Below are positions 3,941-64,000 of a stretch of 64,000 bases of DNA, one piece after another (the stretch's first letter is position 1; every line of letters starts with the position of its first letter). The DNA is taken from positions 99,634,001-99,698,000 of the forward strand of contig NC_091480.1 of NCBI RefSeq assembly GCF_036971445.1, written 5' to 3'. The DNA is from Narcine bancroftii. Taxonomy: Eukaryota. A program made the position numbers and the translations under genes. Below the pieces are notes generated by a model that saw nothing but the letters and a program-made list of their open reading frames with translations, had not been told where the DNA came from and did no database searches.

Positions 3941-3996
3941 GATGTATTAAACTGAAGACAGCAGGTGTGGATTGATTTTGTTCTGACTTTTTGCAG

Positions 3997-5862: not shown

Positions 5863-5889
5863 ATCTATAGTCAAGAAAGTGCTTGAAGC

Positions 5890-8435: not shown

Positions 8436-8620
8436 AAGTGCCCGAGAAACTCAACAGGTCCTGCAGCGTCCACAGGAGGCAAAAGTATATAAGCAATGTT
8501 TTGGGCCCAAACTCTTCATCAAGGTATGACAAAGCCTTAACAAAGGGCTCAGGACTGAAATGTTTGTTATATATCCTATGAATACCGCGGGGCTTGTTGA
8601 GTTTCTCCAGCACTTTTCTG
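8436..8620. mobile_element. Palindromic pair of Penelope-like terminal repeats
   Basis: gagaaactcaac...gttgagtttctc inverted arms; same family at 11690/12190, 18443-18615, 23768-24385, 57285 and 62700. Confidence 0.65.
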
Positions 8621-8750
8621 AATTTACTTTACTCCAGTGATCTGACATACAGGTGTTAATTGATCTACTTTGGGTTTTTTTGGGGGTGGGGGGAGAAACG
8701 GACTCATGGGCTGGAAGGGTCTGTAACCGTGCTGCACGTCTAAATTTAAG

Positions 8751-10680: not shown

Positions 10681-11156
10681 AATCTGTTTGTTCGAATCAC
10701 ATCTGGTACTTGTGTGCTCTTTTATCAAGAAATCCTGTTAAAACTGGAACCATTTCACATCAAACAGATGGTGTTCAATCTGTTCGTTCGAATCACATCT
10801 GGTACTTGTGTGGTCTTTTATCAAGAAATCCTGTTAAAACTGGAACCATTTCATATCAAACAGATGGTGTTCAATCTGTTCGTTCGAATCACATCTGGTA
10901 CTTGTGTGGTCTTTTATCAAGAAATCCTGTTAAAACTGGAACCATTTCACATCAAACAGATGGTGTTCAATCTGTTCGTTCGAATCACATCTGGTACTTG
11001 TGTGGTCTTTTATCAAGAAATCCTGTTAAAACTGGAACCATTTCACATCAAACAGATGGTGTTCAATCTGTTCGTTCGAATCACATCTGGTACTTGTGTG
11101 CTCTTTTATCAAGAAATCCTGTTAAAACTGGAACCATTTCACATCAAACAGATGGA
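10681..11156. repeat. 96-bp tandem repeat, ~5 near-identical copies
   Basis: Unit aatctgttcgttcgaatcacatctggtacttgtg...caaacagatggtgttc. Confidence 0.95.
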
Positions 11157-12423
11157 GCCTGCAAATTACTCATTCACTCCAGACCCTGGTGTTGAAACTG
11201 TTCCCTTGATCAGACCTGACCATATTTCACCTTCACGCTGACTTACTGACCGGTTGTGCTGGTCAGTCCTCCAACATTTCATACCATCGTCCCCATTGCG
11301 CCTGACGGTGTGGATACTTCCCCTAATCACTTGTGGCTCTACCTTTGGACCTGTCACACAGGAAACCACTGCTTTTAGCCAATCTCTCTCAGTGTCTGAT
11401 TCCTCATTGGTGTCATTCTTCATACTTTGTACCCAGTTATGATCCCCCTGACAATATTTAACCGTCGGCCTATTACATCGAACACGTTTAATCCCTGGTG
11501 CCTGTTTTGTGTACTGGTGAGTGGACCTGCCAATATTTGCACCCCTTGAACCAATGACCTCACCCTATTTGTCCTGTCTTGTCCATTACACCTGATACTA
11601 CATCAATTCACCAATTACATCTAACTGAACAAACAACCCTGAAGGGGTAAAACAAGTCTGGAGACATCATGGCTGAAGTAGAAATACAACGCTGGAGAAA
11701 CTCATCAGGTCAAGCAGTGTCCTTTATGTAGCAAAGATAAAGATACATAGAACATTACACCACAGCACAGGCCCTTTGGCCCTCAATGTTGTGCCGATCT
11801 ACATATTCCTACCAAAAAAAAGTACTAAACCGTCCCTACCCCATGACTCAATATTTTCCCTTCATCCATGTGCCTGTCCAAAAGTCTCTTAAATTCCCCC
11901 AATGTTCCAGCCTCCACCACCATCCCTGACAAGGCATTGCAGGTACCCACAATTCTGTGTTTTAAAAAAAAAGAACCCCTGACGTCTCCCTAAACTTCTC
12001 TCCCTTTACTTCGTACATATGTCCTCTAGTGTTTGCTCCTTCTGTCCTGGGAAAAAGCGCTGGTTGTCCACCCTTTCTATGCCTCTTCATCAAGGTATGA
12101 GCAACATGTAGGCAGGCAGTCGATGAAGGGATCAAACCTGAAACGTTGGTTCTGTATCCTTTCTCTGTAAAGGACACTGACCTGCTGAGTTTCTCCAGCT
12201 TTTTTTTAATTAAAACATTCCTGAAGGCCTTTACTACCCTGAGCCCAACACACCTGTCACTTGCATTTCATGCATGTACTGTTAGTACTTACCTGATCAC
12301 ACTGAAGCATAGTCAGACACAGAACCTTGAGCCCCTTTGGGAATGGCAGTTTTGAATGCGTTTAGTTAAATCTGACTCTTGTTTCATTATTTAAAAACCA
12401 TGATGATGCGTTATTGTTTCCAG

Positions 12424-12601
12424 GGGAGTGATGAGTGATGGAGCCCGCCACTGCTTTGAGAAGAAAGGAGTGGTGACAGTGAATGGCTGGGATCAGAACG
12501 GTCAGGATATTCAGCTGGAACGTGCTCTGGAGTTGGCAATTGAATCTGGAGCAGAAGATGTTAAACAGGTTGAGGATGAAGAAGATAGAGTCCTGCTGAA
12601 G
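12424..12601 (+). CDS. TACO1: TACO1 coding exon 4
   Basis: gtttccag| [17 protein letters not shown]...[13 protein letters not shown]...LLK |gtgaga; 178 nt; phases 2->0. Confidence 0.95.
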
Positions 12602-12837
12602 GTGAGAAAACAATGTCACTCCTAACTCTACGTCGGGCCTCCACCTGCAGCCCTCTGGGAAGATTGAGTGACATGTACTGTCCTGTTTGTGTCTAACCAT
12701 TTAATAGCCATGCAAAGGTAGTGGATGAGCAGAGCTTCTCTTCAGACACTTTCCATGCCAAGTACAACATGAATTAAAGCTCCAGGGCAGAACAAGAGAT
12801 TTAGGAGAACTAGAAGGGGACATGAGAAGCCTCGACA

Positions 12838-12990
12838 TGTTACAGCACCAGCATCCGGGGTTCGAATCCGCCATTGTCTATAAGGGGTGTGTGCGCTCTC
12901 TCCATGTCTGCATGGGTTTTCCTTGGGTGCTCTAGTTTCCTCCCACCATTCAAAACATACCAGGGACACAAGGGACAATTTAACCCATCT
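12838..12990 (+). mobile_element. V-SINE copy with intact Pol III B-box
   Basis: GGTTCGAATCC at ~12859-12869 followed by the family core. Confidence 0.7.
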
Positions 12991-12999
12991 TTTTAAAAA

Positions 13000-14260
13000 G
13001 AGGCCTTGGCAAGTAGGATTACGGAAAATCTTAAGGCATTCTATATGTACATGAAGAACTGGAGGATTACCAGATGGAAGATAAGGCCACTTGGGATAAA
13101 GGGGGAACTGTGCCTGGCAGTAGCAGAAGTTCTCATTGAATACTTTACTTCATTGTTCACCAGGGATAGGGACCTTGACAAATGTGAGGTCACCATAGAA
13201 CAGGTTAATGTGCTGGAGCACGCCGAGGCTAAGAAAGAGAAAGTTTTGGAACTTCTGAAAAAATTTGAATAGACAAGTACCAGGACCGGTCCCTGATATA
13301 GAGATATCCCTGATATCTTTGTCTCATATCAATGCTGAATAAACCCACTGAGTTCCTCCAGCATTTCAGTGTTTTTACTGTCCTTGATATAGCCAAAGTT
13401 AGTACAGGGAATGAGGGAAGACATTGATAGGGGGTTAACAATGATCTTTGTGTCCTCTCTGGACATTGGAGAGGTGCCAGAAGATTGGGGGGAGGCAAAT
13501 TTTGTCCTGTGGTGTAAGGTAATTGGGGTAATCCTGGGAATAATAGAACAGAGAGTCTTGTGTCATTGGTAGAAAAATTATTGGAGAGGATTCTGAAGGC
13601 CTGGATTTACAGACAAGCATTTGGAGAAGCATAGTCTTATCAGGGATAGTCAGCTTGTGAGGGGCACAAGCCTAATTGAGTCTTTCAAGAAAGTAACATT
13701 GATGATGAATGTGGTGTATCTGGATTTTAGGTTGGCACTTGACAAGGCCCCCCATGGTAGATTCATCCAGAAAGTCATGAGGCATGGGATCCACGAAAAC
13801 CGGGCTGCATGGCTTGCTCACAGGGAGGATGGTGGTCGATGGAAAGTTGAACCTTTGAGCAGTACATTTGCAGTAATCAACCTTCCACATCAAATGGAAC
13901 CGGAACAATGTGAGAAATATGCTCAAGCACAGAACAGTTAGTTTTCCAAATCCCATCCGATCTCTTCCACTTAATAGAAGTGTATAAAATTATGAGGGGC
14001 TTAGATAGGGTGAACAGCCAGCAGCTTTTCCTGGGGTGACAACAGCAAATCCCAGAGGACACGTGTTTCAGGTAAGGGGTGGAAAGTTTAGAGAAGATGT
14101 CAGAGAGTGATGGAATGCTTTGCCAGAGATGGTGGTGGAGGCTGGTGCAATAGGGACATTCAGAAGACTCTTGGATAGCCTCAAGGATGAAAGAAAAATA
14201 GTTGTGGGTTTAAGATAGGGAAGGATTCAGTTTACATTGTGGGCCAAAGGGCCTGCTGCA
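13000..14260 (+). mobile_element. Degenerate CR1 LINE ORF2 fragments
   Basis: KAFYMYMK, VVYLDFRLALDKAPH and LIEVYKIMRGLDRV-type CR1 motifs. Confidence 0.7.
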
Positions 14261-14399
14261 GTGGTCTTTTGATAAAAGAGTAGGATTGTATTAATATGTG
14301 GAAAACTAGGACATGGGAGAAAATTACTACTCTTTGGGTAAAATTAAAAAAGGTACATGAGCCATATGTCATCTGTGGTTTTTTTTAATTGTTTTTCAG

Positions 14400-14603
14400 T
14401 TTGTTTGTGACTTGTCCTCATTGCAAGAGGTGTGGGAGAGGTTGAATGCACATGGACTGCAAATTGTTCATTTTGGACCTGAATTTATCGCCACCACAAC
14501 TGTCCAGCTAACCGAGGAAGATTTGGAGGCAGCATTTTGCCTGATTGAGCTGATCAATGAGAATCAGGACGTTATGAAAGTCTACGATAATGTCAATAAC
14601 TGA
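14400..14603 (+). CDS. TACO1: TACO1 coding exon 5 (last)
   Basis: tttttcag| FVCDLSSL...DVMKVYDNVNN*; typical YebC C-terminus; total CDS 927 nt in frame. Confidence 0.95.
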   Translation, partial: FVCDLSSLQEVWERLNAHGLQIVHFGPEFIATTTVQLTEEDLEAAFCLIELINENQDVMKVYDNVNN

Positions 14604-18839: not shown

Positions 18840-19438
18840 ATCCAACCAATACGAGTGCTCAGCTGTCAGGTTCTTCAAAATGATTGGCGATCTTCGGTCC
18901 GTTATTGAGATGTTGGTCACCAATTAAATCTCAAGGTCCCACACTAGACCCGCCCCGTTCATGCATATTCATTCCGTTGGCCTCCATCTTCTTGAAATCT
19001 AATTGGTGAATCTCATAGTCCGTGAATATATTTTGCAAATTGACGAATCAGATGCAAGGGTTTGACAGCGAGGCTGCATGCCATTGTTCCAAATCGTTGT
19101 CATTCACCCAACGGACCAACCCCAATTATTTCTGTTCAGATGTAATTGGCTACTGGACCTGTCCATCCGCTTGAGGCTCAAACCAGTCGCAACGTGCCAA
19201 CGGTCCGCCCGGCCACCCAACGCCTGCATTTGATTGGGTTATCTCCGACGTCGATCTTGGCACCCACTGGCCCGCCCTCCAATGCGCCGCCGCGATTGGC
19301 TGCGACCACTGTCAGTCGCCGGCCGGTTTCCGCTGTGAGTTTGAGCGGGTTATTGTTGTGAGCGGCGGCAGCGGGTTGACGGTGAAGGCCGGGCCGGGCC
19401 GGGGCAGGTGGGGCGTCGAGCAGGCCTCCCCTCCCAAG
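18840..19438 (+). promoter_or_regulatory. DCAF7 CpG-island promoter/5' UTR with clustered CCAAT and GC boxes
   Basis: CCAAT/ATTGG at 18846, 18883, 18920, 19002, 19122, 19145, 19233, 19279, 19295; CCGCCC ~18950, 19205, 19272. Confidence 0.75.
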
Positions 19439-19735
19439 ATGAGCATGCACGGCAAGAGGAAGGAGATCTACAAGTATGAGGCGCCGTGGACGGTGTACGC
19501 CATGAACTGGAGCGTGCGGCCCGACAAGCGCTTCCGCCTGGCGCTCGGCTCCTTCGTGGAGGAGTACAACAACAAGGTGCAGGTGGTGGGCCTGGACGAG
19601 GACAGCTCCGAGTTCATGTCCCGCAACACCTTCGACCACCCCTACCCCACCACCAAGATCATGTGGATCCCTGACACCAAGGGCGTCTACCCCGACCTGC
19701 TCGCCACCTCCGGCGACTACCTGCGCGTCTGGAGG
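19439..19735 (+). CDS. DCAF7: DCAF7 (WDR68/HAN11, WD40 scaffold) coding exon 1
   Basis: MSMHGKRKEIYKYEAPWTVYAMNWSVRPDKRFRLALGSFVEEYNNK...LATSGDYLRVWR |gtaagg; 297 nt. Confidence 0.97.
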
Positions 19736-19794
19736 GTAAGGCCAGGCCGAGGCCCCGCCGCCTAGGGAGGGGGGAGGTGCTCAGGAGGGAGACA

Positions 19795-20170
19795 GGGGGT
19801 GGGGTGGGGTGGGGGGAGAGAGAGTGGGGGTGGTGGGGAGAGGGTGGGGGTGGGGAGAGGGTGGGGGTGGGGAGAGGGTGGGGGTGGGGAGAGAGTGGGG
19901 GTGGGTGTGGGGAGAGAGTGGGGGTGGTGGGGGGAGAGAGGGGGGGTGGGGGGAGAGAGGGGGGGTGGGGGGAGAGAGGGGGGGTGGGGGGAGAGAGGGG
20001 GGTGGGGGAGAGAGAGGGGGGTGGGGGGAGAGAGGGGGGTGGGGGGAGAGAGGGGGGGTGGGGGGAGAGAGGGGGGTGGGGGGAGAGAGGGGGGGTGGGG
20101 GGAGAGAGGGGGGTGGGGGGAGAGAGGGGGGGTGGGGGGAGAGAGGGGGGTGGGGGGAGAGAGGGGGATT
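19795..20170. repeat. G-rich ~18-19 bp minisatellite (ggggtggggggagagagg)
   Basis: Tandem units at the start of DCAF7 intron 1; strong G4 potential on the sense strand. Confidence 0.9.
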
Positions 20171-20489
20171 GGTGGGGAAGAGGGCTGGTGGGGGCAGGTG
20201 GAGAGAAAAGAGGTGAAGAACAAAGTTGAGGATGGTTCAACACTTTTTTGTTTCTGTCTATTGTCTGGTTGTGAGTCTTTATGTTTTGCACTGAGGACTA
20301 GAGAATTCTGTTTCATTGGATGGTACTTGTGTATTTGGAGGCCATTTCAACTCTTGTGCTTGTTTCCAGACCTGTATGAATTATCCCTGAAGTACATTTT
20401 TTCATCTTCCACTTCCACCTGCACACTGGTGTTGATTTACAGTAGCCAATTAACTCATCTTTGATATGAAATGGGGATAAACGAATGAA

Positions 20490-28124: not shown

Positions 28125-30785
28125 TAATGAATCTCCATCTCATCCATCACAGTTATAATGAAGTCTCCATCTCATCCATCAGTTATAATGAATCTCCATC
28201 TCATCCATCACAGTTATAATGAATCTCCATCTCATCCATCACAGTTATAATGAATCTCCATCTCATCCATCACAGTTATAATGAAGTCTCCATCCCATCC
28301 ATCACAGTTATAATGAATCTCCATCTCATCCATCACAGTTATAATGAAGTCTCCATCCCATCCATCACAGTTATAATGAATCTCCATCTCATCCATCACA
28401 GTTATAATGAATCTCCATCTCATCCATCACAGTTATAATGAAGTCTCCATCTCATCCATCACAGTTATAATGAAGTCTCCATCTCATCCATCACAGTTAT
28501 AATGAAGTCTCCATCTCATCCATCACAGTTATAATGAATCTCCATCTCATCCATCACAGTTATAATGAATCTCCATCTCATCCATCACAGTTATAATGAA
28601 TCTCCATCTCATCCATCACAGTTATAATGAATCTCCATCTCATCCATCACAGTTATAATGAAGTCTCCATCTCATCCATCACAGTTATAATGAAGTCTCC
28701 ATCTCATCCATCACAGTTATAATGAATCCCCATCTCATCCATCACAGTTATAATGAATCCCCATCTCATCCATCACAGTTATAATGAAGTCTCCATCTCA
28801 TCCATCACAGTTATAATGAAGTCTCCATCTCATCCATCACAGTTATAATGAAGTCTCCATCTCATCCATCACAGTTATAATGAGTCTCCATCTCATCCAT
28901 CACAGTTATAATGAACCTCCATCTCATCCATCACAGTTATAATGAAGTCTCCATCTCATCCATCACAGTTATAATGAAGTCTCCATCTCATCCATAACAG
29001 TTATAATGAAGTCTCCATCTCATCCATCACAGTTATAATGAAGTCTCCATCTCATCCATCAAAGTTATAATGAAGTCTCCATCTCATCCAACACAGTTAT
29101 AATGAAGTCTCCATCTCATCCATCACAGTTATAATGAAGTCTCCATCTCATCCATCACAGTTATAATGAAGTCTCCATCTCATCCATCACAGTTATAATG
29201 AAGTCTCCATCTCATCCAACACAGTTATAATGAAGTCTCCATCTCATCCATCACAGTTATAATGAATCTCCATCTCATCCATCACAGTTATAATGAAGTC
29301 TCCATCTCATCCATCACAGTTATAATGAAGTCTCCATCTCATCCATCACAGTTATAATGAAGTCTCCATCTCATCCATCACAGTTATAATGAAGTCTACA
29401 TCTCATCCATCACAGTTATAATGAATCTCCATCTCATCTATCACAGTTATAATGAATCTCCATCTCATCCATCACAGTTATAATGAATCTCCATCTCATC
29501 CATCACAGTTATAATGAAGTCTCCATCTCATCCATCACAGTTATAATGAATCTCCATCTCATCCATCACAGTTATAATGAAGTCTCCATCTCATCCATCA
29601 CAGTTATAATGAATCTCCATCTCATCCATCACAGTTATAATGAAGTGTCCATCTCATCCATCACAGTTATAATGAAGTCTCCATCTCATCCATCACAGTT
29701 ATAATGAATCTCCATCTCATCCATCACAGTTATAATGAAGTCTCCATCTCATCCATCACAGTTATAATGAAGTCTCCATCTCATCCATCACAGTTATAAT
29801 GAAGTCTCCATCTCATCCATCACAGTTATAATGAAGTCTCCATCTCATCCATCACAGTTATAATGAAGTCTCCATCTCATCCAACACAGTTATAATGAAG
29901 TCTCCATCTCATCCATCACAGTTATAATGAAGTCTCCATCTCATCCATCACAGTTATAATGAAGTCTCCATCTCATCCATCACAGTTATAATGAAGTCTC
30001 CATCTCATCCATCACAGTTATAATGAAGTCTCCATCTCATCCATCACAGTTATAATGAATCTCCATCTCATCCATCACAGTTATAATGAAGTCTCCATCT
30101 CATCCATCACAGTTATAATGAAGTCTCCATCTCATCCATCACAGTTATAATGAAGTCTCCATCTCATCCATCACAGTTATTATGAAGTCTACATCTCATC
30201 CATCACAGTTATAATGAATCTCCATCTCATCTATCACAGTTATAATGAATCTCCATCTCATCATCACAGTTATAATGAAGTCTCCATCTCATCCATCACA
30301 GTTATAATGAAGTCTCCATCTCATCCATCACAGTTATAATGAAGTCTCCATCTCATCCATCACAGTTATAATGAAGTCTCCATCTCATCCATCACAGTTA
30401 TAATGAAGTCTCCATCTCATCCATCACAGTTATAATGAATCTCCATCTCATCCATCACAGTTATAATGAAGTCTCCATCTCATCCATCACAGTTATAATG
30501 AAGTCTCCATCTCATCCATCACAGTTATAATGAAGTCTCCATCTCATCCATCACAGTTATAATGAAGTCTCCATCTCATCCATCACAGTTATAATGAATC
30601 TCCATCTCATCCATCACAGTTATAATGAAGTCTCCATCTCATCCATCACAGTTATAATGAATCTCCATCTCATCCATCACAGTTATAATGAAGTCTCCAT
30701 CTCATCCATCACAGTTATAATGAAGTCTCCATCTCATCCATCACAGTTATAATGAATCTCCATCTCATCCATCACAGTTATAATG
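28125..30785. repeat. 30/31-bp minisatellite, ~87 copies
   Basis: Unit taatgaa(g)tctccatctcatccatcacagtta, highly homogeneous, starts at the exon 3 donor. Confidence 0.98.
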
Positions 30786-34409: not shown

Positions 34410-37400
34410 CCCATTGGAGTCACGTGATGGAGTAGTGGCCGGTCGGGTAAAACCAGCCGTCTCCAGAAAAGAAGAAAAAAAAGTCAAAAAAAAGACAAAG
34501 TTCAACAAATATAAAATATAAGAAATAAAAGATAAAGTTGCAGAGAAGAGAAAGAAGATGGCACCCAAGAAGGAAAAAGTAAAAACAACAGGGAAAAGAA
34601 GACGAAAAGTCATCGGAAAAGAAAGAAGGCCTTACCTGCATGAAGGAACAGGGAGCTGTGGTGGCGAAGAACGCCCTTTCTCCAAGGTTGGTGTTGACCC
34701 TGTGGAGTCGCGACTCCCTGACTGGTGGACTGCAAAAATGGTTCTCTGAGCCAAACAAAAGTGCGCATGTGCGAGGAGTCGCGCATGAGCAGTGCGCAAT
34801 CTAAGGTAAAAGAAAACACCGATGGGAGGGGGCTCAGCCAAGGAGCGGGCAACCACGGCGCGACCAGCTGAGGGACGCCCGACACCAGGGCTCTCAGCTG
34901 GAAGATGAGGAAGGCAGCAGGAGCGGGAGTGAAGTGCCAGGTGAGAAAGAAAGTCGACGGGGTGAACGGCAAGAGGACCAACAGCAGGAGGCTCGACAAA
35001 ATGAGACAAGCAACTCATCAGGAAAGTCAGAAGAGACACAGATACAAAGAAGAGAAGAAGACGACACAAACACAGATACAGACACAGAAGAAGAGGAAGA
35101 AGACCAAGATCTTCACAGAGAAATAAAAGGTAAAACAGATGGACAGAATATAGATAAAGCTTTTTTTGAAGAACAAATGAGATCACTAAAAGAATGGTTG
35201 TCATTAGAATTTAGTGAAATTAAAAGAAAAATGAAAAGAACTGAATATAAACTGCAAAGATTAGAACTAGTCATGACAGAAATAGGGAAAACAGTAGAAA
35301 ATGTGTAAGAACGAGAAACGGCTGTAGAAATGGAAGTGAACAACTTAAGAGGAAAATTGGAAGAAAATTATAAAAAAATTAAAGAGACACAAGAGTTGTT
35401 TGCTCAGAAAATTGATATGTTGGAAAATTATAGTAGGCGAAACAACATAAAAATAGTGGGCCTGAAGGAAGATGAAGAAGGCACAGATATGAAAGAATTT
35501 ATAAAAGGATGGATCCCGAAGGTCCTGGGAACGACAGAAATTCAGGAAGAAATGGAAATAGAAAGGGCACAGAGAACACTAGCTCCGAAACCAGACACAT
35601 CAAAATCCAAGATCTATCTTAGTAAAATTTTTGAGATATACGACAAGAGAAAATATACTGGAGCGGGCAAGGAATAAAATTAGAGAAGATAATAAACCAT
35701 TGGAATACAAGGGTCAAAAAGTATTTTTTTACCCAGGCATAAGTTTTGAACTCTTAAAGAGGAGGAAGGAGTTTAATACAGCAAAATCAATCCTACGGAA
35801 AAAAGGTTTTAAATTCATGTTAAAACATCCAGCTATGCTTAAAATATTTATCCCTGAGGAGCAAAACAGACTGTTCTCAGATCCGGAGGAAGCACGAGAA
35901 TTTGCAGAACGCCTGCAGGACAGAAGGAGAGATGAAGAGATATAATAAGAATGAAGAATGTCGATAAAGTATATATAAAGATGTAAAAACAATGTATATG
36001 TAAAGAACTAAAGAAGGAAAAGAGAAGGGAAAGAAGGAAGTAAGGGCGGAAAAAGGAGAGCTTTGTTATGTGTTTTTTTTTTAAAAAAAGTTTTCTGGGG
36101 GGGAGAGAATAACCATCATTGCGAAATCAGTTGATGCTTGCGAACAAGATCGCAATCCAAATGGAAAGGGGAGTTGTGGTTGCCCGGCAAGGGATAAGGG
36201 GCAACTCAGAGGGGGGGGGTGGCATTTGGGGTTAAGATTAATATTCGATGTGGGAGTTGTTGGAGTATTTTATGTTTTAAATGTTGTCAAACATTGAGTT
36301 TGAAAAGGGAAAACTGAGAGATGAAAATGGGGAAAAGTGGTTGTGAGGAAGTGGAAATGAGGTGTAAACAGGATATGAGATGGCCACGTTGAACTATCTG
36401 ACTATAAACATTAATGGAATACATAGCCAAATTAAAATGGATATTAAATTTACTGAAAAAAGAAGAAAATAGATAGAGCATTTGTGCAGGAAATTCATCT
36501 AACTGAAGTGGAACATAACAAATTAAAGAGAGACTGGGTAGGACACGTAACGGCAGCATCATATAATTCAAAAGCCAGAGGTGTCGCTATATTAATCAAT
36601 AAAAATGTACCAATCAAAATAGAGGAGGAAATAATAGATCTAGCAGGGAGGTATGTAATGATAAAGTGTCAGATATATTCAGAATTTTGGAATTTGCTCA
36701 ATATATATGCACCTAATGAGGAGGATCAAAAGTTTATGCGGTATATTTTTTAAGATTGTAGATACACAAGGAAATATATTGAAAGGAAGGGATTTTAACC
36801 TTAATTTGGATCCAATGTTGGATAAAACTGGACAAAAGACAAGCAAAAAGAATAAAGTGGCCAAATTTATGGTTAAATCAATGCAGGAAATGAAACTTAT
36901 GGATATATGGAGGAGGCAGCACCCAAGAGAGAAGGAATACTCATATTATTCGAGAAGGCATAAAACATACTCAAGGATTGATATGTTTTTGTTGTTGGCC
37001 CATATTCAAGGGAGAGTTATGAAAACTGAGTATAAAGCTGGACTACTATCTAATCATTCACCCCTGTTATTAGTAATAGAACTGGAGGACATCCCACCAA
37101 GAACCTGTAGATGGATATTAAACTCCATGATACTTAAAAGGCAGGAATTTAGAGAGTTTATTGAACGCCAAATTAAAACATATTTTGAAATAAACATGGA
37201 ATAGTGAAAGACAAATTTATATTATGGGACGCAATGAAAGCCTTCATTAGAGGGCAGATAATAAGTTATGTAACTAAGATTAAAAAGGACTACAGTTGGG
37301 AAATAGAGCAGTTGGAAAGGGAGGTAGTAAGTACAGAAAAGGAACTAGTAAAAAGGATGATTTTACAGGGAGAGATTGGGCAGATTAGGTCTTTATTCTT

Positions 37401-40400
37401 TGGAGCGTAGAAGGTTGAGAGGGGATTTGATAGAGGTATTTAAGATTATGAAAGGGATAGACAGAGTGGATGTGGATAGACTATTTCCGTTAAGAGTAGG
37501 AGAGATTGAAACAAGAGGACATAAGTTAAGAGTTAAGGGGCAGAGGTTTAGAGGTAACATGAGGGGGAACTTCTTTACTCAGAGAGTGGTAGCGGTGTGG
37601 AACGAGCTTCCGGGAGAAATAGTGGCGGCAGAGTCCATTTTATTATTTAAGAAAAAGCTGGACAGGTATATGGATGAGAAGAAGGTGGAGGGTTATGGTC
37701 ATTGTGCAGGTAGGTGGGACTAGAGAGGAGTGTTTGGTTTGGTGCGGACTAGAAGGGCCTAATGGCCTGTTTCCGTGCTGTAATTTTTATGTTATATGTT
37801 ATGTTATGTTATATAACAAAAAGGAGAGAATTGGCAGACAAAAAAAAATAAAATACGGAACATTACAAACATACAAGGTGGAGAAGAACATAATGAAAAT
37901 AAAGCAAAAGTTTTACGAACTGGGAGAAAAAACACACAAAATATTAGCCTGGCAACTTAAAACAGAACAAGCTAAAAGAACTGTATTGGCATCAAGGAAA
38001 AAGTACAAACAAATTACATATAATCCAACAGAGATTAATGAGAACTTTAAGGAATTTTATGAACAATTAGACCAAACTGAGAACGAGCTAAAATTGAACT
38101 GCTGAAATTGCAAGAAGAGGAACAAAACAAACTGATAAAACCATTTGAAATGGAGGAAGTACAGGGTATATTTAAAAAAAAAAGCTGCCAAACAATAAAA
38201 TGCCAGGAGAGGATGGATTCCCAATAGAATTCTATAAAACATTTAAAGAGTTATTAATTCCTCCTCTCCTGGAAATAATGAACCAGATAGAAGAAACACA
38301 AAACTTGCCAGAATCATGCAAGACAGCAATAATTACAGTAATACCAAAGACAGGGAAGGATCCACTCGCACCAGCATCATATCGACCAATAACTCTACTT
38401 AACTCAGATTATAAGAAAAAAGCGAAACTATTAGCAAACAGATTGGCCGATTGTGTACCAAAAATAGTAAAACTAGATCAAACTGGATTTATTAAGAAAA
38501 GATGAACAGCGGATAATGTCTATAAACTTATTAATCTAATTCATGCAGTTCAAGGAAATAAGAAGCCAACAGTGGCTGTTGCTTTAGACGCAGAAAAAGC
38601 CTGTGACAGAGTAGAATGGAAGCATTTATTTAAAGTATTAGAGGTTCAGTCTACCAGAAAAATATATTGATTGGATTAAAGCATTATATAATGGACCGTT
38701 GGCAACTGTAACAGTAAATAGATATGTATCAAACCAATTTCAATTAAGTAGGTCAACTAGACAGGGATGTCCATTATCCCCCTCATTGTTTGCCTTAGCA
38801 ATAGAAATATTGGCAGAACTGATAAGAACAGAAAATAAAAGGGATAAAAATAAAGGAGAAGGAGTATAAAATCAACTTATTTGCAGATGACATCATAGTA
38901 TACTTAACAGAACCAGAAATATCAATAAAAGAACTACATAAGAAATTGAAGGAGTATGGAGAAATATCGGGGTACAAAACGCAAATAAAAGTGAGGTGAT
39001 GCAAATGAGTAACGCGGATTATACAGAATTTAAAAAAAGAATCACTATTTAAATGGCAAACACAAGCAATCCGATTCCTAGGTATCAGGTTAAATAATAA
39101 CTTTAGCCACCTGTACAAACTAAATTATCAGCCATTAATAAAGAAATTGCAGGAAGACTTAGAGCATTGGAAAGAATTACTGCTAAAGTTGATAGGGAGG
39201 GTAAATTGTATTAAAATGAATGTCTTCCCAAGGATACAATACTTATTTCAATCGTTGCCAATTCCCTTAACTGAGAAATTCTTTAATGAACTAAAGAGAA
39301 TAATAAGGAAATTCTTGTGGAAAGGGTGAAACCAAGGGTAGCGTTGGATAAATTAACAGAGGTGTATAACCAAGGTGGTTTGCAGTTAACAAACTTTAAA
39401 AATTATTATAGAGCAGCACAATTAAGGTATTTATCAGATTTTTACCAGACAAGGGAAAAACCAGACTGGACTAAGATAGAACTAGATAAAATAGGGGAGA
39501 AGGTACCGGATGTACCGGAAGGTAAGTGGGATGTAAAGCTGGTGCAATATAAAAGCTCACCAGTATTGCATCATTTACTTAATATATGGAAGAAGATCCA
39601 CTTAGAAAGGAAAAAAAATGAATTATCAAATACTAAAATTGTTCTTGACACAAAACCCACTAATCCCTTTTAAAATAGATAACCTTTCCTTTAGAGAATG
39701 GGAGAGAGAAGGAATCAAAAGAATAGAAAATTGTTTTTTGGGAAATAATTTATTTACATTTGAACAGTTGAAGTACAAATATGGAATAACTCACGGTACA
39801 ATGTTTGCATATCATCAATTGAAAGCTTATTTAAAGGATAAATTGGGAAACAGACTGAGATTACCAGAAGGAAGCAGCTTTGAATATGTGATTACAGACA
39901 CAATGATAATTAAAAGATTTATAACAAACATATACATTAAGCTGCAAGATAAGGAAAATGATGAAATAAGCTGTAAACCTAAAAAAAGTGGGAAAAGGAT
40001 TTAAACATAAAGATAAAAAATGAAGCATGGGAAAAGTTATGTTCCGGAACTATGAAGAATACAATAAACACATGATTCAGTATAATTGGTTACACAGGTT
40101 ATATATCACTCCTTAAAAGTTAAAAGAATGGGACCCAACAGTATCAGATAGATGTTTTCGCTGTAAGAAGGAAACGGTAACAACAGTACATGCAATTTGG
40201 GCACGTACGAAAGTGAATACTTTTTGGGAAGAACTAAATCAGATATTAAATAAAATTACAAAAAAAAACTTACCAAAAAATCCAGAGATCTTTCTTCTAA
40301 GCAACATAAGTAAAGAATTAGGCCTCAAACTGGATAAAGTGCAAAAAAAGATTTATTTTGATAGTCTTAGCAGTTGCAAAAAAATGTATAATGTCAACTT

Positions 40401-40690
40401 GGAAAATGGAAGAGAGCCTGAGAGTACAGCAATGGTCCATGGAAATGAATAAATGTATTCCATTGGAAAAAATAACATATAATTTAAAAAATAAAGTCAC
40501 ATTATTTGAACAAATTTGGGAACCGTACATGGAACATCACAGAGATGACCCATTTTTCTTTATTTTTCATTGTGTGATGACATTGTTTAATGGTTTTATT
40601 GTATTGTATATGTTGAATATTTATTGGTTTTGGAGGGGTGAGGGAGGGGGGGGGGAAGGGAGAAAATGCCACTGTGTATATTTAATGAGA
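34410..40690 (+). mobile_element. Near full-length L1-clade LINE (ORF1 ~34558-35945; ORF2 EN+RT ~36380-40560), inactivated
   Basis: ORF1 DMLENYSRRNNIKIVGL, FFYP.ISFEL; EN QE.HL, GVAILINK, YAPN, SRIDMF, S.HSP; RT PGEDGFPIEFYK, YRPITLLN.DYK, DQTGFI, LDAEKA.D, RQGCPLSP, LFADD; multiple stops and frameshifts. Confidence 0.92.
37362..37812 (+). mobile_element. Young CR1 3' fragment nested in L1 ORF2
   Basis: LGLYSLERRRLRGDLIEVFKIMKG...FFTQRVVAVWNELP intact; (ttatg)n tail; L1 sequence resumes after it. Confidence 0.85.
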
Positions 40691-41510: not shown

Positions 41511-43217
41511 GATTTGAAGAGATCGAGTCATCTAATGACTTGCTGAGGATAGAAGGAGATTATACCCATTGTAGTTTTTAAGATTCTCATTTTTATTTTC
41601 AGGACATTAATCAGATTGTCAAATTAACTTCTGTTGCCATTTAAAACCAAAATTTCATATCCATAGAACACTACAACCAAAGAAACAGGCCCATCTTGTC
41701 CATGCTACGTTGTTTTTTCTACTGATTCCCATTGACCTGCACCCAGACCAAACTCCCCCACACCTCTCCCATCCATGTACCCATCAGAACTTTTCTTAAA
41801 TATCAAAAGTGAACCCTCATCCATCACTTCCACTAGCAGGATCATTCCACACTCTTACTGCCATTTGAGTGAATAAGTTCCTCCTAATGTCCTCTTGTTC
41901 TTGTCTCACCCAACCTCTGGCAGGGTTGGGGGAGAAAGGGAACCTGCTTGCATCTACTCCTTATAACTTTGACTACCACACTATCTGTTCATTTGCCACC
42001 ATTCCAGGAATAAAATCCCTATAACTGCTCTCAAAGTCCCAGCAACATCCTTGTAAATTTTCTCTGCATTCTGAATCTTATTGATATCTTTCCTGTAAGT
42101 AGGTGATCAAAGCCAGGTACAGATGAAATCCAGGATATGTAGACTTAGCAATAACTTGTAACTTTTTCATCCTTTCCATAAAATCTGAATTCTATTTCCT
42201 TTTACTTGTTTTCTCAACTCTTATCTGACCCCTTGGGTTTTTCTTTGTCCAGTGTTTTAGGAAGATGTTATAATTTCCTTTTTTTTTCTATTTCCTATTA
42301 CTTAACCCGCCTGCCTTTAGTTAATGGATCCTTTTAAATTCTTGTGCTGTCGACGTTTGTTGCTGTTGCACTCTGTACTTGCCCAAGATTTATTAAAGAC
42401 CAGTGTTCACTGTGTTCCCGCAGTGAAGCCACTGAGCCCATACTGTTGTGGTTTTTTAAACTGACTTTTTATATGATTGGCCCCTTTGTTTAAATTTTGT
42501 TTGCAACTATTGATCTTTAAATTTATCATAACTTGTTCATATTATAATTTAAATTTCTCAGCACACTAAGGAATTTCTTGTCACCTCTCAAGGGAAGGTG
42601 TCCAGTCATTAACCCAGTATTCTCAATGGATTGGTTTCCTCTCATTCAGTCTTATCTGTAAATGTCCGTGGTCGTTCGTCTGTGGATATTCAACATGGTG
42701 AAATTGGCTAGTGAACCGAAATACTGTTACCATGTCAATATACAAACTGAATCTAGTGATCCTAAGTCAGCAGATTTGGTGACTTCTACTCCATCATTCC
42801 AGCCTGAATTTGAAGAGGCAGAACTTGTTTCCTTTCCTGTGGAATGGAGTGGAAGTCTTCCTGAATATCTTTTTTACCAACTGGTAGATTCTTGTTGCCA
42901 TCCATGAGCCTCAGCTCTCTGCCATGGCCTTCAGCACTGAGTCTTCCTGTAGAGTTTTGATAGATCTCCCTGGCCCCTGTCCATTCCTGTGTCATAAATG
43001 GAGAAGAAAATTAGGCTATCAGCAGATTTGAACCTTTATTCGTAGGTAAATATTTCCTTTAAGTACTTTGAAGTGTTATGTGAATTCTCCACAAAATGGG
43101 AGATTTCTATGATTCTAAAGGGTGTGATAAGAATGTCACCGGAGTTGTGTCTTGCTTTTAACACTTTGAAGGTTGATGCCCTTATTTTTAACTAAATCAA
43201 CACTTTTTTGTTTGAAG

Positions 43218-43390
43218 CGGATGACCACCAGGCACTTATTTGGGATATTCAGCAGATGCCACGTGCCATTGAAGATCCCATCTTGGCATACACAGCGGAG
43301 GGAGAGATCAACAACGTCCAGTGGGCATCAACCCAGCCTGACTGGATAGCCATCTGCTATAACAACTGTCTGGAGATCTTGCGGGTTTAG
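43218..43390 (+). CDS. DCAF7: DCAF7 coding exon 6 (last)
   Basis: ttttgtttgaag| (A)[56 protein letters not shown]; total CDS 1029 nt = 342 aa. Confidence 0.97.
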
Positions 43391-49772: not shown

Positions 49773-49778
49773 AATAAA
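49773..49778 (+). terminator. Candidate DCAF7 polyadenylation signal
   Basis: AATAAA with U-rich upstream sequence and gtgttgtttg downstream. Confidence 0.6.
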
Positions 49779-51585: not shown

Positions 51586-52379
51586 TTCCAGGAGGAGGTG
51601 GGTTGTGGGACCCAGGGAACGTTGGCAGCTTGGGTTCTGAGTTGGCTTGCTGCAGAAAGCAGATGGAATGTCATTCTGCCTGGAGGTCAGTGACCAGTGG
51701 AGTTCCGCAGGGATCTGTTTTGGGAGCCCTGTTCTTTGTGATCTTTATAAATGTTGCATGAAGATGTGGAGGGTAGGTCTGCAAGTTTGCAGATGATACA
51801 AAGGTTGGATGTGTTGCAGGGGTCCTTGATTTGGCACATCACAGGGCTGTAGGTGTGGGAATGGCATGTGGAATAAAAGAACATGTCAGCTCAGGCCCAA
51901 AACATTGACTGCCTTTTATGTTGCGTGGCCTACTGAGTTCCTCCAGCATGTTTGTGCACGGTTCTCAACCCTAGCATCTGCAGTGATTCCTGTTTAACTT
52001 CATTTCCTAAACTGTGGTTTGATGGTGTCCGTGTAGACATTCCACTGCAGGTGGATGTTGTGTGGAACAATCTGTGCAAATTGCTCACCCTGCCACCAGA
52101 TGGACAGCGGAGTGGGTGCCTGCTGCACCTGGCCATACATGGCTGGGACTTCCAGTGGAGTCCCTGACACACTGTAGGTTCATTCTCAGCTCAGTGGAAG
52201 TGACAACAGGTCAAGTTTATTATCATCTGATTATACAACCTGACAAAACAGCATTAATGTTCACAGACAGAAAATGCAATCATGGGACAGGCTGGAAAGG
52301 ATGCAGAAAAGGTGAGAAAGTTCCCGGGGAGGGTGCGGCGGTACGACCTGCTGACCTGCTGTCCTGCTTGAAGCGAGAA

Positions 52380-53235
52380 ATGTGGACAATACCGTCATCT
52401 GGTGTCTGAGTCCGCAAACTGCAAGTGCCTACATGTGGACAATACTACCATCTGGTGTCGGGGTCCGCAAACTGCAAGTGACTACTTGTTGGGAACAATA
52501 CCGCCATCTGGTGTCCGAATGAGCAAATTGCAAGTGTCTTCATGTTGGGGACAATACCGCCATCTGGTGTCTGAATGAGCAAATTGCAAGTGCCCACATG
52601 TTGGGGACAATACCGCCATCTGGTGTCAGAATGAGCAAATTGCAAGTGCCCACATGTTGGGGACAATACCGCCATCTGGTGTCACAATGAGCAAATTGCA
52701 AGTACCCACATGTTGGAGACAATACCGCCATCTGGTGGCAAGGTGAGCAAATTGTCAATGCCCTCATGTTGGGGACAATACCGCCATCTGGTGTCAGAAT
52801 GAGCAAATTGCAAGTGCCCACATGTTGGGGACAATACCGCCATCTGGTGTCAGAATGAGCAAATTGCAAGTGCCCACATGTTGGGGACAATACCGCCATC
52901 TGGTGTCAGAATGAGCAAATTGCAAGTGCCCACATGTTGGGGACAATACCGCCATCTGGTGGCAAGGTGAGCAAATTGTCAATGCCCTCATGTTGGGGAC
53001 AATACCGCCATCTGGTGTCAGAGTGAGCAAATTGCCAATGCCCTCATGTTCCGGACAATACCGCCATCTGGTGTCAGAGTGAGCAAATTACAAGTGCCTA
53101 CATGTTGGGTACAATACTGCCATCTGGTGTTGGCGTCAGGAATCTTCAAGTACCCACATGTTGAGGGCAACACCGCCATCCGGTGGCGGGGTGGGCAAAC
53201 TGCAGCAGCTGTAAGGTGCTGCCATCTCGTGTTCT
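52380..53235 (-). repeat. 56-bp minisatellite, ~15 copies, each with a CTCF-like motif
   Basis: Unit acaataccgccatctggtgtcagaatgagcaaattgcaagtgcccacatgttgggg (period 52551->52607); minus strand reads (A/C)CACCAGATGGCGG. Confidence 0.92.
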
Positions 53236-53689: not shown

Positions 53690-56225
53690 TTACCCTGCCA
53701 ATGGATCTGGAGGACTTGGTGTTCTCTGTTTCTGTTCTGAGAAGATAGCTGTAATTTGGTAAAAATATACAGGAGACTTGTATATCCACAACTGAAATGA
53801 AGAAGTTTATGGATTCTTTCCAACAAACTTTGTCACAGTTAACAATAGAAGTTTAAAATTGAAAATAACGGTTCTACGAAGAAGGTTGTCTCAAATGGAG
53901 CAAAAATTTGAAGTGAGGTAATGAATTTGAAATTCAGCATGTTAAAGAGCAAATGAAGAAAGTTAACTCAAAATTGATATGTTAGAAAATTTTAGAAGAA
54001 GAAATAATATAGAAATTGGTGGACTTCAGGAAGGTGACGGAGTGGAAGATATGAAGAGATTTTTATAACGTTGGATTCTGCAAACTTTGGGGGTAACTGA
54101 ATTTCAAGGAAATATTGAGATTGAAAAAGCTCATCAAGCATTTTGACCTAAGCCACAGCCAAATCAGAAGCCACGTTCAATTCTGGTCAAGTTGCTTCAT
54201 TATGAAGTGAGGGAGAAGATCTTGGAGCTGGCTGCAAAGCAAACGAAGGAGAGACAATCGCCATTGATTTATAATGATAAGGTTTTCTTTTATCCTGATA
54301 TAAGTTTTGATTTGTTTAAAAAAAGAAATGAATTTAATGCTGTTAAAAAATGTGTTCTGGAAAAAAGGCTACACTTTTGTTTTAAGGCAGTGTTAAAAGG
54401 TTTTGTTCCAGAGGGCAAAAACAGATTTTTTTTACGGAACCCAATGAAGTAAAAGTGTTTGCAGGTTCGTAGCCTGAGAAAATGAGATGAGAACTGGGAG
54501 ATATTTGAAGAGAGAGGAAGTGGAAAGATTGCAGTTGGGGATGTATAATGAAATTATATAAGTTTAGGAGGAGAGAGAATATTAGAGAGGACAATTTCTA
54601 CCCAATAGATCTGTTTTTTTTTTAAATTGATCATTGTAAGTTTGAGGAATAAGAGATAGTAAAATTTTGGGGGAGTTGGGTGAGAGAATGAGCCTGGCCT
54701 CCGCTGAATCTAGTGAGTGGGTGTGGTTTTCAATCACAACTCTTATAGATCAGGGGTGTAAAGACACACTGTTAATAACATGGGGGGAGGGGAATGGGGT
54801 TTCAGTTATTTTCTTTGTTTCCTTTCTTTTTTCTCTTTAATGCACCTAAATTTAATGATTGATTTATGAAATATTTAGTTCATATTTTGGATGTAGGAGG
54901 AGTGGAGATGGAAAATTGGATGGTTATTGGATTTTATGAGAGTTTAGATGGCTGATAAATTGAATTTTATTAGTATTAATATTAATGGGATTCAGAATCA
55001 AATAAAGCAGAAAAAATTATTAGTTTATATGAAAAAAATTAAAACAGACATAGCTTTTTTTACAAGAAACACATTTTTTTTTAAAATTTTTTATTTTTCA
55101 CACCATAAACCACATTAACCATGATACATACTTTTTCCTTTTCAAATATATACAGTGCCATTTTCTCCCCCCTCCCTCCTCCCATCCCACCCTCCCTACC
55201 TCCCCCCTCCCGTCCATTTAAAGTACAAAATCTAGGATACATTTGATGGAAAACGAACATCAAAAATTAAAGAGATTGGGTAGGGACAGTAATAGCATCA
55301 TCTTTTAATGCTAAGGCTAGAGGCATAGTAATATTAATTAATAAATATTTACCAGTTAAAATATCAGATATTAGTATAGATGTAGCAGGAAGAAACATTA
55401 GGGTAAATTGCAAGATTTATTTGCAACAATGGACCTTAATAAATGTACATGCACCAAATGTAGATGATGGCAAATTTATGCAATGTCCTTCATGAATTTA
55501 TGAAATGCCAAGGGAAAAGTTATATTGGGAGGGGATTTTAGTTTTGCTTTGGACCCAAAATTAGATCAATTGGGAGATAAAACAGTGAAAAATAAGGTAG
55601 CAAAATGGTAACAGATTTGATTAAAGCTATGGATTTAGTGAATATTTGAAGAAAAATCCACCCAAATGAAAGAGATTATTCTCTTTCTTCTTTTCGATTT
55701 AAAGCATATTCATGGATACATACGTTTTTAATTTCTGCACAATTTCACGACGAAGAGTGGAATATCAAGTGAGGGTTTTATCAGATCATTCACCTTTAAT
55801 TTTGTTTATTTCATTTGGAAGAACAAAAGATAAGTTATAGATGGAGGTTAAATACCACTTTGTATATGAGGCAACAGATAAACATTTTTCTAGATAGTAA
55901 TGAAGATTCAGTTGTGAGTAAGTTTACATCATGGGATTCTATGAAGGCATATTTGAGAGGTCAAATAATAAGTTATACTTCAAAAATAAAGAGAATATAT
56001 GAAAGTAGTTCAATTAGATAAATAAAGAATGAAGCTGGTGAAGGAAATTCAAGTACATAAAGATGAGAAGAGAAAATTGTTGAAGAAATTAAGCCAATAC
56101 TGTGCAGACTTATAAAGTGCATGGCAACTAAAAATGGAACAGATTTCTAGGACAGTAATTGCAACTAAGAAATTATCAGGTCCGATAACATAAAATGCAG
56201 AAAATAAATGATAATTTTAAAGACT
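53690..56225 (+). mobile_element. Second, older L1-clade LINE (ORF1 + endonuclease), 3'-truncated
   Basis: IDMLENFRRRNNI, FFYPDISFDL, ININGIQ, QETHL, SDHSPL, WDSMKAYLRGQIISY. Confidence 0.8.
55077..55238 (-). mobile_element. Short L1 3'-end insertion (poly-A tail) in antisense inside the older L1
   Basis: Minus strand ends in AATAAA and an A-tail; shares gggagaaaatg.cactgt.tatattt with 40658-40683; TSD acattt at 55071-55076 and 55239-55244 splits the QETHL codons. Confidence 0.8.
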
Positions 56226-56261: not shown

Positions 56262-57796
56262 TGTAGTCACATCCAAATATCTCACAGATCAGACTTCACC
56301 CCTCCACATTAAGAAGAACTGGGTCTCTATTACGTTGTGTCTAAACAGCAATCCAGGCTGACTCCATGAACCAAGACACTTCAGTGTGTAACACTGTGGA
56401 GGGAGTGGGAGCTGTGATCTCAACCCATCTGGCAGGGGATCCTTCTGGAACACTTTAAAGATGAAGAATGGGCTGGAGACAGAAAGATTGAGGTGTTCCA
56501 ATTGCCTTGGGTACTGCAGCCAGCAAGGGAACAAAGACTGATCTGTGAATTGAACTCTGAAGGAAAATGCCGTGTTGTGGGAATATGTCACTTGGGGCTG
56601 AACAAGAACTGTGTATTTTCCGGCTGGAGAATCATAACACCAAACACAAAGTGTCACGGTCTTGGGTTGGGTTTGCAATTTGAGCATCAACAATGAGGGT
56701 CTGTAACGCACTCTGGTGAATCAGATCCAGCCTGTGAATACCAGGGCCAATGTTAAATGAAAGGTGAAAGTCTGCAGATGCTGTAATTGTAGCAGAAACG
56801 CTGGAAGAACTCAGCAGCCATTGGAGGTAAAGATTTCTTTCTGACGTATCCGGTCTGAGCCCTTGTTGTTAAATTCTCCCTTCGTGATTGGTTCAACGCT
56901 GAAACTAGGAGGGTGACTTAATGAGGATGCTTTTCAGACTGGCTTTAATCTTTCAGCTTACTCATCAGTGGGCAGGGGCGATTAATGACATGCCTCTTTG
57001 CAGCAGATGCAATTGCATTTAATTAAAGTAAATGCAGTAATTCCACCAACAGACGGGAAAGGGTAGCTGCTGGGAGCCAGACAGCAGTGCCCGCCAGCCA
57101 CTATATTCAGTGCCACCCAACCACAGTGCAAGGGAACTGCTCCACAACATGTGACACAGACCATGACATAGGCAGAGATGTGCACCCCACGCGTCACATT
57201 CAGTGACACACATTGTGCAAAGGCAATTCTGTGCAGCATTCTCAGTCCCTCCAGCAGGTTTCACTTTGAACAGCTAACAACCGTGCTGGAGAAACTCAGC
57301 CGGTCACACAGCATCTATAGAAAGTAAAGGGTCACCAACATTTCAGCCTTGAGCCCTTCAACAAGGTATGAGGAGAAAGCAGGCCGGCACTTGGATAAAA
57401 TGGTGCAGAGGGATGAGGGGAGGGGCACAGGCTAATGGGTAAGAGGTCATAGGTGGATACAGATGGGAGGGCAGCTCTGACAGGAGAGGGAAGGGGGTGG
57501 GAGCTGGAAGAAAGAAGACAGGAGAGGGAAACAGGGACTCGGGGGAAGTTGGAGAAGTTGATGTTAATGGTGTCCAGTTGAAGAGAGTCTCCAGCTTGTA
57601 GTGACGTCCAAATATCTCACAGATCAGACTTCACCCCTCCACATTAAGAAGAACTGGGTCTCTATCACGTTGTGTCTACACAGCAATCCAGCCTGGCTCC
57701 TTGAACCAAAACACTTCAGTGTGTAACACTGCAGAGGGAGTGGGAGCTGTGATCACAACCCATCAGGCAGGGGAGCCTTCTGGAACACTTTAAAGA
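56262..57796. repeat. Dispersed ~200-bp direct duplication (56262-56461 and 57597-57796)
   Basis: tccaaatatctcacagatcagacttcacccctccacattaagaagaactgggtctc...ggaacactttaaaga occurs twice, roughly 90% identical by eye. Confidence 0.9.
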
Positions 57797-63099: not shown

Positions 63100-63700
63100 G
63101 GACTGTATCTTGAGACCCCAGCGCCTGGGTCGACCCCCGCCCAGGGGAGACCTCAGCTGAGCAGCAGTGAATGTGAATGGGAGCGTTGAGGGGGGGGGGA
63201 GACGGGACCGGATGAAATTACTTTCATTCCAACCTCTCCTCATCTGGGACCGGCCCCTCCTTATAGAGAGTTGGGCGAACGAAAGCGGCCGGGTTAGAAG
63301 TAGCGGGCGGGGGCAGTTTGGGCGAGTGAGTCAGTCCCAGCTCCGACTCAGTGAGAGGAAGGAGCGGCCAACGCGGCCCCCAGCCCCGGCCCCCAGACCC
63401 CCGGCCCCGGCCCCCAGACCCCCGGCCCCGGCCCAGACCCCCGCCTGCAGGACCCAGACCCCGGCGCCGGGGTGCGGGAAGAAGGACTATGATCGGCAGC
63501 AGGTCCCGAGGATCGGAGGCCCGGGAGCAGGACGGAGACGTCGGCAGAATCGCCCTGAAAGCCTTCCAGAAAGTCGGTGAGAGCGGTCGTGTCGGGAGCG
63601 GGGAGGGAGAGATCGTCTCCGTGGAGCAAAGAAGGGGCTTCCCGGCACGTTTCCCCGTGACAGCTTCATCCCTGCGGCAGGCTGCGGGGCTTGGAGCTGA
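63100..63700 (+). promoter_or_regulatory. CpG-island promoter of a third, unidentified gene
   Basis: CpG-dense; GC box GGGCGGGGGC ~63305; AP-1 TGAGTCA 63327-63333; short 21-bp GC repeat 63378-63470. Confidence 0.65.
63489..63576 (+). CDS. Candidate first coding exon of an unidentified gene (MIGSRSRGSEAREQDGDVGRIALKAFQKV)
   Basis: ATG with A at -3 inside the CpG island, followed by donor-like G|gtgaga; protein not recognised. Confidence 0.3.
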
Positions 63701-63704
63701 GGAG

Positions 63705-64000
63705 CACCCCCCCACCCCCCCGACCCGGTCCCCACCCCCCCGACCCGGTCCCCACCCCCCCGACCCGGTCCCCACCCCCCCGACCCGGTCCCCACCCCCC
63801 CGACCCGGTCCCCACCCCCCCGACCCGGTCCCCACCCCCCCGACCCGGTCCCCACCCCCCCCCCGACCCGGTCTCCCCCCCACCCCCCGACCCGGTCCCC
63901 ACCCCCCCCCCGACCCGGTCTCCCCCCCCCCCCCGACCCGGTCTCCCCCCCCCCCCCGACCCGGTCCCCACCCCCCCCCCCCCGACCCGGTCCACACCCC
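63705..64000. repeat. C-rich ~20-bp minisatellite (ccccccgacccggtccccac), runs off the window edge
   Basis: Tandem units directly visible; G4 potential on the minus strand. Confidence 0.92.

Follow-up and report, generated by a model that had tools for sequence, protein, structure and literature searches.

A 56-bp minisatellite of candidate extended CTCF sites, all facing one way, between DCAF7 and a PLCD3-like gene in Narcine bancroftii

Introduction

The window, as the whole 64-kb stretch of Narcine bancroftii DNA analysed here is called, contains a minisatellite whose 56-bp unit carries an extended CTCF motif and is repeated about 15 times in a single orientation. On balance, we lean towards reading this array as one local CTCF site that was amplified, is probably bound by CTCF, and would act as a one-way stop to cohesin facing DCAF7. 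The units score as good extended CTCF motifs, with the core and the upstream module at the correct spacing. Core conservation among the units is suggestive, and the array can be explained without invoking selection on copy number.

Genomic setting

Gene order in the window, between positions 2427 and 63577, is TACO1, DCAF7, and PLCD3-like, all on the plus strand, and the array lies in the gap between the last two. TACO1 exons occupy 2427-14600 (+); in a protein comparison, the last of them shares 98% identity with Narcine bancroftii TACO1-like, followed by 74% for the next species. The gene that runs from ~19.4 kb to a stop at 43390 (+) is one that we take, from its translation, to be DCAF7. 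The human arrangement is presumably different, with TACO1 coming after DCAF7 and PLCD3 far away. The PLCD3-like start is embedded in a CpG-rich island (CpG o/e 0.68) ~10 kb to the right of the array. The gene landmarks on either side of the array are as follows:

43196..43390, plus strand: open frame in which DCAF7 ends, with its final coding exon and stop codon (gene named from the translation)
49773..49778, plus strand: candidate DCAF7 poly(A) signal AATAAA, after which comes T/G-rich sequence (0.69)
63440..63577, plus strand: PLCD3-like 5' coding stretch, 100% identical to the Narcine bancroftii PLC-delta-3-like protein

The first-pass annotation of this DNA placed the array beyond the DCAF7 poly(A) site. 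The signal at 49773 is plausible for that purpose, but from the DCAF7 stop up to the array there are ten poly(A)-like hexamers, of which it is one.

The window has further features of its own. A 32-bp minisatellite at 28125-30785 (84 copies, 97% matches) starts from the second base of a DCAF7 intron, in the splice donor, and has no CTCF core. The first ~100 DCAF7 codons lie in one open frame (19175-19765, +); mammals presumably split them into two exons, and the intron may have been lost or gained. A 96-bp array in a TACO1 intron (10681-11155, 4.9 copies) has stop-free frames of 193 and 170 aa, probably due to 96 being a multiple of three. Next to each of the three CpG-rich gene starts (1-213, 19806-20194, and 63377-63977) is a tandem repeat of short units with a strong skew to G or C. 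Broken copies of what we take to be non-LTR retrotransposons occur at ~34800-40500 and 53700-56100, with ORF1-/ORF2-like pieces in several frames. A direct repeat of ~190 bp was also seen by eye at ~56270-56460 and 57605-57795, its copies ~1.3 kb apart.

Architecture of the array

TRF delimits the repeat at 52384-53204 with a period of 56, 14.7 copies, and 87% matches, and an nhmmer profile search recovers 15 full-length units with one core in each. The CTCF-core-like words number 16, have their first bases from 52405 to 53232, and are all on the minus strand. These counts bear out the earlier description of a uni-directional array of ~15 motifs whose sites point left, toward DCAF7/TACO1. The components of the array are:

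52382..53218, minus strand: 56-bp minisatellite of 15 complete units, each with CTCF core and upstream module at 6-bp spacing
52724..52738, minus strand: variant-type unit with a perfect core (15/15) and a damaged upstream module (6/10) by consensus scoring
52948..52962, minus strand: second variant-type unit, 224 bp from the first (core 15/15, upstream module 6/10)
53218..53232, minus strand: partial 16th unit, reduced to its core (13/15), which lies 46 bp from the one before

The units are arranged head to tail, their length falls within 10-100 bp, and a motif is present in each. The inner 11 are homogenised, and the two units at each end have diverged. Across all lags tested within this one haplotype, inner units are 90-94% alike, which is consistent with recent turnover. 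Identity at lag 224 is 0.936, compared with 0.899-0.926 at the other four lags, and the distance of 224 bp between the variant units suggests duplication of a four-unit block. The homogenised centre, the diverged edges, and this probable duplication support the proposal that the array originated by tandem amplification of one site. Beyond a single inverted copy, discussed below, blastn and nhmmer found no further copies of the unit in the 64 kb. An Rfam scan of the whole window returned 0 matches to structured RNA at the gathering threshold. A coding role was rejected, as the frames over the array (78-121 aa) consist of the unit repeated in rotating frames.

Match to the extended CTCF motif

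Units were scored against a composite consensus from the supplement of PMC12885311, which is a degenerate consensus rather than a PWM and whose alternate-base row was aligned by inference from the PDF text. All 16 cores match at least 13 of the 15 positions; 13 of them reach at least 14/15, including two at 15/15, and the other three stand at 13/15. The upstream module matches at least 8/10 at 6-bp spacing in 11 of the 16 units, and nine units combine such a module with a core of at least 14/15, in agreement with the earlier claim that both modules are present at the right spacing. The exact wording of that claim was too strict: the unit pattern as first written is exact in only 4/16 units (by eye), and only 2/16 cores match the strict core consensus. 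Among the inner units, the two with a perfect core (52724-52756 and 52948-52980) are those whose upstream module is most damaged, whereas good upstream modules go with a mismatch at core position 1.

The rest of the 64 kb contains 0 sites at 14/15 and only three at 13/15, and the best cores in nine other tandem-repeat regions scanned reach 9-12/15. For a random 56-mer, the chance of such a core is P ~1-2e-4, and that of core plus upstream module P ~0.5-1.5e-5; the upstream-module match alone is weak (P ~0.06). Because the copies descend from one unit and are not independent, this per-unit probability is the fair figure and is preferred here, and a shuffle count (13 matches vs 0.26 expected) was set aside.

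Two departures from the consensus fall at bases whose relation to the zinc fingers is described. Core position 1 is A instead of C in 13/16 units, and this base lacks direct contact with ZF7 in the account of PMC10484683. According to the same source, ZF9 reads a C in the upstream module, where the array has T, an allowed alternate. The two-part CTCF motif itself is described as conserved to lamprey (PMC5504073).

The CpG content of the core runs against the initial suggestion that the array might be methylation-sensitive. Methylation is reported to inhibit CTCF at core positions 2-3 and to enhance binding slightly at 12-13 (PMC10484683). In the array, positions 2-3 are CpA in 16/16 units and the CpG falls at 12-13, the tolerant position, in 13/16; the motif therefore predicts methylation tolerance, the opposite of the earlier guess. 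Given the lack of a CpG at 2-3 in any of the 16 cores, a methylation-switched CTCF element of the H19 ICR or DXZ4 type was rejected. Chromatin packing could still exclude CTCF.

Mutation pattern across the units

Changes were counted by parsimony over the 15 complete units; the partial unit and the inverted copy were excluded, and three columns of the unit at 52405 were gapped. The core shows 0.40 changes per column, the upstream module 1.00, the linker 1.67, and the sequence outside these elements 1.23. The core makes up 15 of the 56 columns and would be expected to hold 15.5 of the 58 changes, but it holds six (p=0.002 with independent columns). No 15-column window of the unit has fewer changes than the core, and only those shifted by +1 to +4 have as few; the conserved block runs 4-5 bases past the core. 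Among the inner 11 units, the core holds one of 21 changes (p=0.012), located at position 1, and no CpG has decayed.

The strength of this signal depends on how mutations are assumed to arise. Under rate heterogeneity, the core p is 0.009-0.045. Since mutations are visibly clustered, the signal weakens to 0.01-0.12 under clustered-mutation nulls, and to 0.03-0.21 for the inner 11 units, whose variation is patchy and leaves three blocks invariant, of which two lie mostly beyond the core. No constraint was detected on the upstream module (1.00 vs 1.04 changes per column, p=0.54). Core conservation is thus suggestive, and the core may be under weak purifying pressure.

The first-pass annotation hinted at constraint and called for a comparison of divergence in motif and spacer. 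Its expectation is supported for the core, where changes are fewer than in the remainder of the unit, with the reservation that clustering weakens the result; it fails for the upstream module. The cores of the diverged edge units had also been described as still recognisable, but all four of those cited (52386, 52439, 53167, and 53216) carry a non-consensus base at core positions 5-12.

CTCF binding, orientation, and insulation

The favoured reading proceeds from one extended CTCF site in the DCAF7-PLCD3-like gap, which a 56-bp duplication would have captured. The usual turnover of minisatellites would then have amplified the duplicated site in place to ~15 copies. CTCF would bind several units, ZF3-7 engaging the core and ZF9-11 the upstream module, and we consider such occupancy of several units quite likely. 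A CTCF footprint of 34-40 bp would fit the 56-bp period, a nucleosome would span 2.6 units, and a methylated CpG at positions 12-13 should be no obstacle to CTCF. Because all cores face left, the orientation rule (PMC12885311; also established knowledge) predicts that CTCF, once bound, would halt cohesin that approaches from DCAF7/TACO1, and that loops would be anchored to the left. The array would then serve as a one-way anchor or the base of a stripe rather than as a boundary with two sides. If the array is bound, an anchor or stripe of this type might be visible in Hi-C, an expectation that we hold tentatively.

Lamprey and skate have kept both the CTCF motif and loop extrusion. CTCF orientation bias is described at skate TAD borders (PMC10115646), and CTCF barrier function has been inferred for the vertebrate ancestor (10.64898/2026.10.19.759930).

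On the comparisons available, insulation would not follow from CTCF binding alone. Known insulators tend to bear the upstream module (PMC12885311), and CTCF is described as binding synthetic arrays built from 6 or 15 non-boundary sites with no resulting insulation (10.1101/2020.07.07.192526). In reporter assays and in models, insulation grows as sites are added (10.1101/2024.08.01.606065; 10.1101/2020.07.07.192526), and the gains are reported to shrink beyond two sites (10.1101/2020.07.07.192526). TAD borders are typically formed by divergent CTCF pairs (10.1101/2024.08.01.606065; 10.64898/2026.10.19.759930). No divergent pair was found within the 64 kb, where the sole plus-strand homologue lies left of the array, faces inward, and has a core of 11/15.

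Neutral persistence and selection

An array of real motifs could also persist as an inert passenger. The repeat would then be methylated and packed in nucleosomes, CTCF occupancy would be low, genome folding would be unaffected, and core conservation would stem from patchy mutation and gene conversion. This explanation, which we consider rather unlikely, draws on the patches and invariant blocks of the inner 11 units, on clustered nulls with p up to 0.12 for 15 units and 0.21 for the inner 11, and on the unconstrained upstream module. A neutral estimate of array numbers points the same way. It takes 41,421 CTCF sites from lamprey (PMC5504073), of which 14% are extended by the proportion given in PMC12885311, together with an array density of 3 per 64 kb, as in this window, or ten-fold lower. 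The expectation per genome, valid as an order of magnitude only, is ~0.6-6 extended-site arrays and 8-80 core-site arrays. As a few such arrays (of order 1-10 per genome) are expected neutrally, the existence of one is by itself no sign of selection. The core CpG at a methylation-tolerant position, the coincidence of the least-changed window with the core, and the binding of similar human arrays in vivo (PMC5007689, PMC4032850) weigh against an inert array.

Selection could, conversely, have maintained a super-anchor of tunable copy number, of the kind that the first-pass annotation envisaged, in which more sites give a stronger barrier between TACO1/DCAF7 and PLCD3-like. The low rate of change in the core, with p=0.002 for independent columns and 0.009-0.045 under rate heterogeneity, agrees with this explanation, as do the restriction of core change in the inner 11 units to the non-contact position 1 and their lack of CpG decay. 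The rise of insulation with site number (10.1101/2024.08.01.606065; 10.1101/2020.07.07.192526) and the retention of CTCF motifs by DXZ4 and ICCE while the remainder diverges (PMC6125249) provide precedents. However, the upstream module, described as needed for insulation in reporter assays (PMC12885311), is unconstrained, the edge cores are damaged, and returns diminish past two sites (10.1101/2020.07.07.192526). Selection for copy number is judged quite unlikely.

A bolder proposal, for which we see only a slim chance, is that a lineage-specific extrusion barrier, maintained by selection, arose in a cartilaginous fish when a minisatellite was amplified in an ordinary gap between genes. CTCF molecules would sit on methylation-tolerant sites every 56 bp (5.33 helical turns), too close for nucleosomes to fit, and the strength of the barrier between TACO1/DCAF7 and PLCD3-like would depend on allele length. 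If true, the locus would offer a natural dose series for the effects of site number and ultra-short spacing on boundary strength, and would hint that minisatellite turnover makes and erases boundaries across vertebrate genomes.

The inverted copy and possible transposon ancestry

The description of the array as one-directional is correct for the array itself, but it overlooked a homologous copy on the opposite strand:

52075..52103, plus strand: inverted homologous copy with upstream module, spacer, and core positions 1-11

This copy lies ~300 bp left of the array and faces into it; its core scores 11/15, with a broken 3' end. It aligns with the two variant units over 27 nt at 93%, and nhmmer assigns it an E-value of 4.7e-7, the next match having 0.62. 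A further search pattern was derived from the array's own sequence, which makes its chance figure circular; the pattern serves for listing copies only. The likeness of the inverted copy (ungapped) covers almost exactly the extended CTCF motif and spacer and nothing outside. Copy and array have the spacer in common at 6/6 positions (chance 0.0017) and the wider linker at 9/10 (P=2e-4), and the 6-bp spacer of the unit at 52724..52738 is identical to that of the copy. CTCF is reported to bridge this spacer without base contacts (PMC10484683). Because a non-contacted spacer is shared in full, common descent of the copy is indicated, not convergence. An old inversion or a short template switch may have produced it, which is a guess.

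The same homology invites a further explanation, in which a decayed, non-autonomous DNA transposon that carried CTCF-like sites is represented by its two subterminal inverted repeats, the copy being the left one and the array the right one, which expanded. Precedents for both steps are described, with CTCF peaks on lamprey hAT elements (PMC5504073) and frog minisatellites that come from transposon parts (10.1101/2021.10.18.464293). The shared non-contacted spacer and wider linker agree with such an origin. So does a 9-bp direct repeat that brackets copy and array (52034 and 53262), but a common 9-mer is found in ~5% (0.054) of random window pairs, which is chance level. Comparison of the two ends yielded no inverted match of at least 10/12, and transposon termini, in the form of terminal inverted repeats with a target-site duplication, were rejected. 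Moreover, the right flank of the array opens with sequence repeated elsewhere in the window, an unrelated repeat fragment (52212-52238) sits between copy and array, and no other copy occurs within the 64 kb. Transposon ancestry is therefore improbable.

It is very improbable that the array serves another binder, either YY1, which is CpG-sensitive, or a bHLH protein on an E-box (the site of such proteins) that overlaps the core: the first six YY1-consensus bases occur in 12/16 units, an E-box occurs in 14/16, and the conserved block extends 4-5 bases beyond the core, but the full nine-base YY1 consensus is found in 0/16, and neither protein accounts for the 14/15 core match or the upstream module. 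The ninth-position T required for YY1 binding (PMC1904287) is missing from all 16 units, which rules out a YY1-site array.

Significance and comparison with known systems

The array has the sequence features of a CTCF-motif minisatellite and lacks those of a methylation-switched element, a divergent boundary, a transposon, or a YY1-site array. It is a single candidate locus in a non-model species, with housekeeping-type neighbours and no known enhancer to block. Among the literature matches listed, no report of a CTCF-site minisatellite in a cartilaginous fish was found. Hara 2018 is reportedly a shark CTCF ChIP-seq study, the data of which could bear on the array. If bound, the array would extend CTCF-carrying minisatellites beyond mammals and provide a natural test of whether sites closer than a nucleosome strengthen a barrier or saturate after two or three. 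Work on barrier strength and site number is described for synthetic or modelled inserts at 139-180 bp spacing (10.1101/2024.08.01.606065; 10.1101/2020.07.07.192526). A genome-wide question is also raised, namely whether the core is consistently spared from mutation across motif-bearing minisatellites.

CTCF-bound minisatellites are a kind already known (PMC4032850, PMC5007689). Human subtelomeric 61-mer arrays, described as lying under CTCF/cohesin peaks with 2-4 copies at most subterminal sites and 7.3 beside an internal telomeric repeat (PMC4032850), resemble the ray array in being minisatellites of similar period. In contrast to the 61-mer, which adjoins telomeric repeats and a CpG-rich, Pol II-bound element, the ray array is intergenic, has ~15 copies, and is known from sequence. 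A weaker precedent than PMC4032850 is found in the 17p-family subtelomeres, with two tandem motifs ~35 bp apart (PMC5727389). In human cells, ChIP identified 171 repeats, mostly tandem, that bind CTCF and BORIS (PMC5007689); elasmobranchs also possess CTCFL (PMC7471279). These repeats are likewise uncharacterised and VNTR-like, and their tandem units yield clustered CTCF sites, but many of the units hold a short staggered signature, whereas the ray unit holds a full core and an upstream module.

More distant comparisons are the superloop anchors DXZ4, ICCE, and FIRRE (PMC6125249), which share with the array a tandem organisation and one or more CTCF motifs per unit. They keep these motifs as the rest diverges, a pattern that is suggested for the core of the ray array too. 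As described there, however, their units are 3-5 kb long, bound on the inactive X, gated by methylation, and conserved in position among mammals. The ray array measures 0.85 kb in total.

The 3' Igh CBEs, another more distant comparison, are not known to form a minisatellite and extend over kilobases. Like the ray array, this super-anchor places many CTCF elements just downstream of a locus; it differs in that its ten elements have an insulator function established by deletion (PMC7826415), whereas the ray array is characterised at the level of its motifs. The lamprey hAT-Tip100 and hAT-Charlie elements (PMC5504073) provide a parallel in a non-mammalian vertebrate, in which CTCF motifs are likewise spread by repeats. 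Their sites are dispersed rather than tandem, and they reside in transposons, whereas the ray array, in which no transposon ends were found, is a tandem series of CTCF motifs in a gap between genes.
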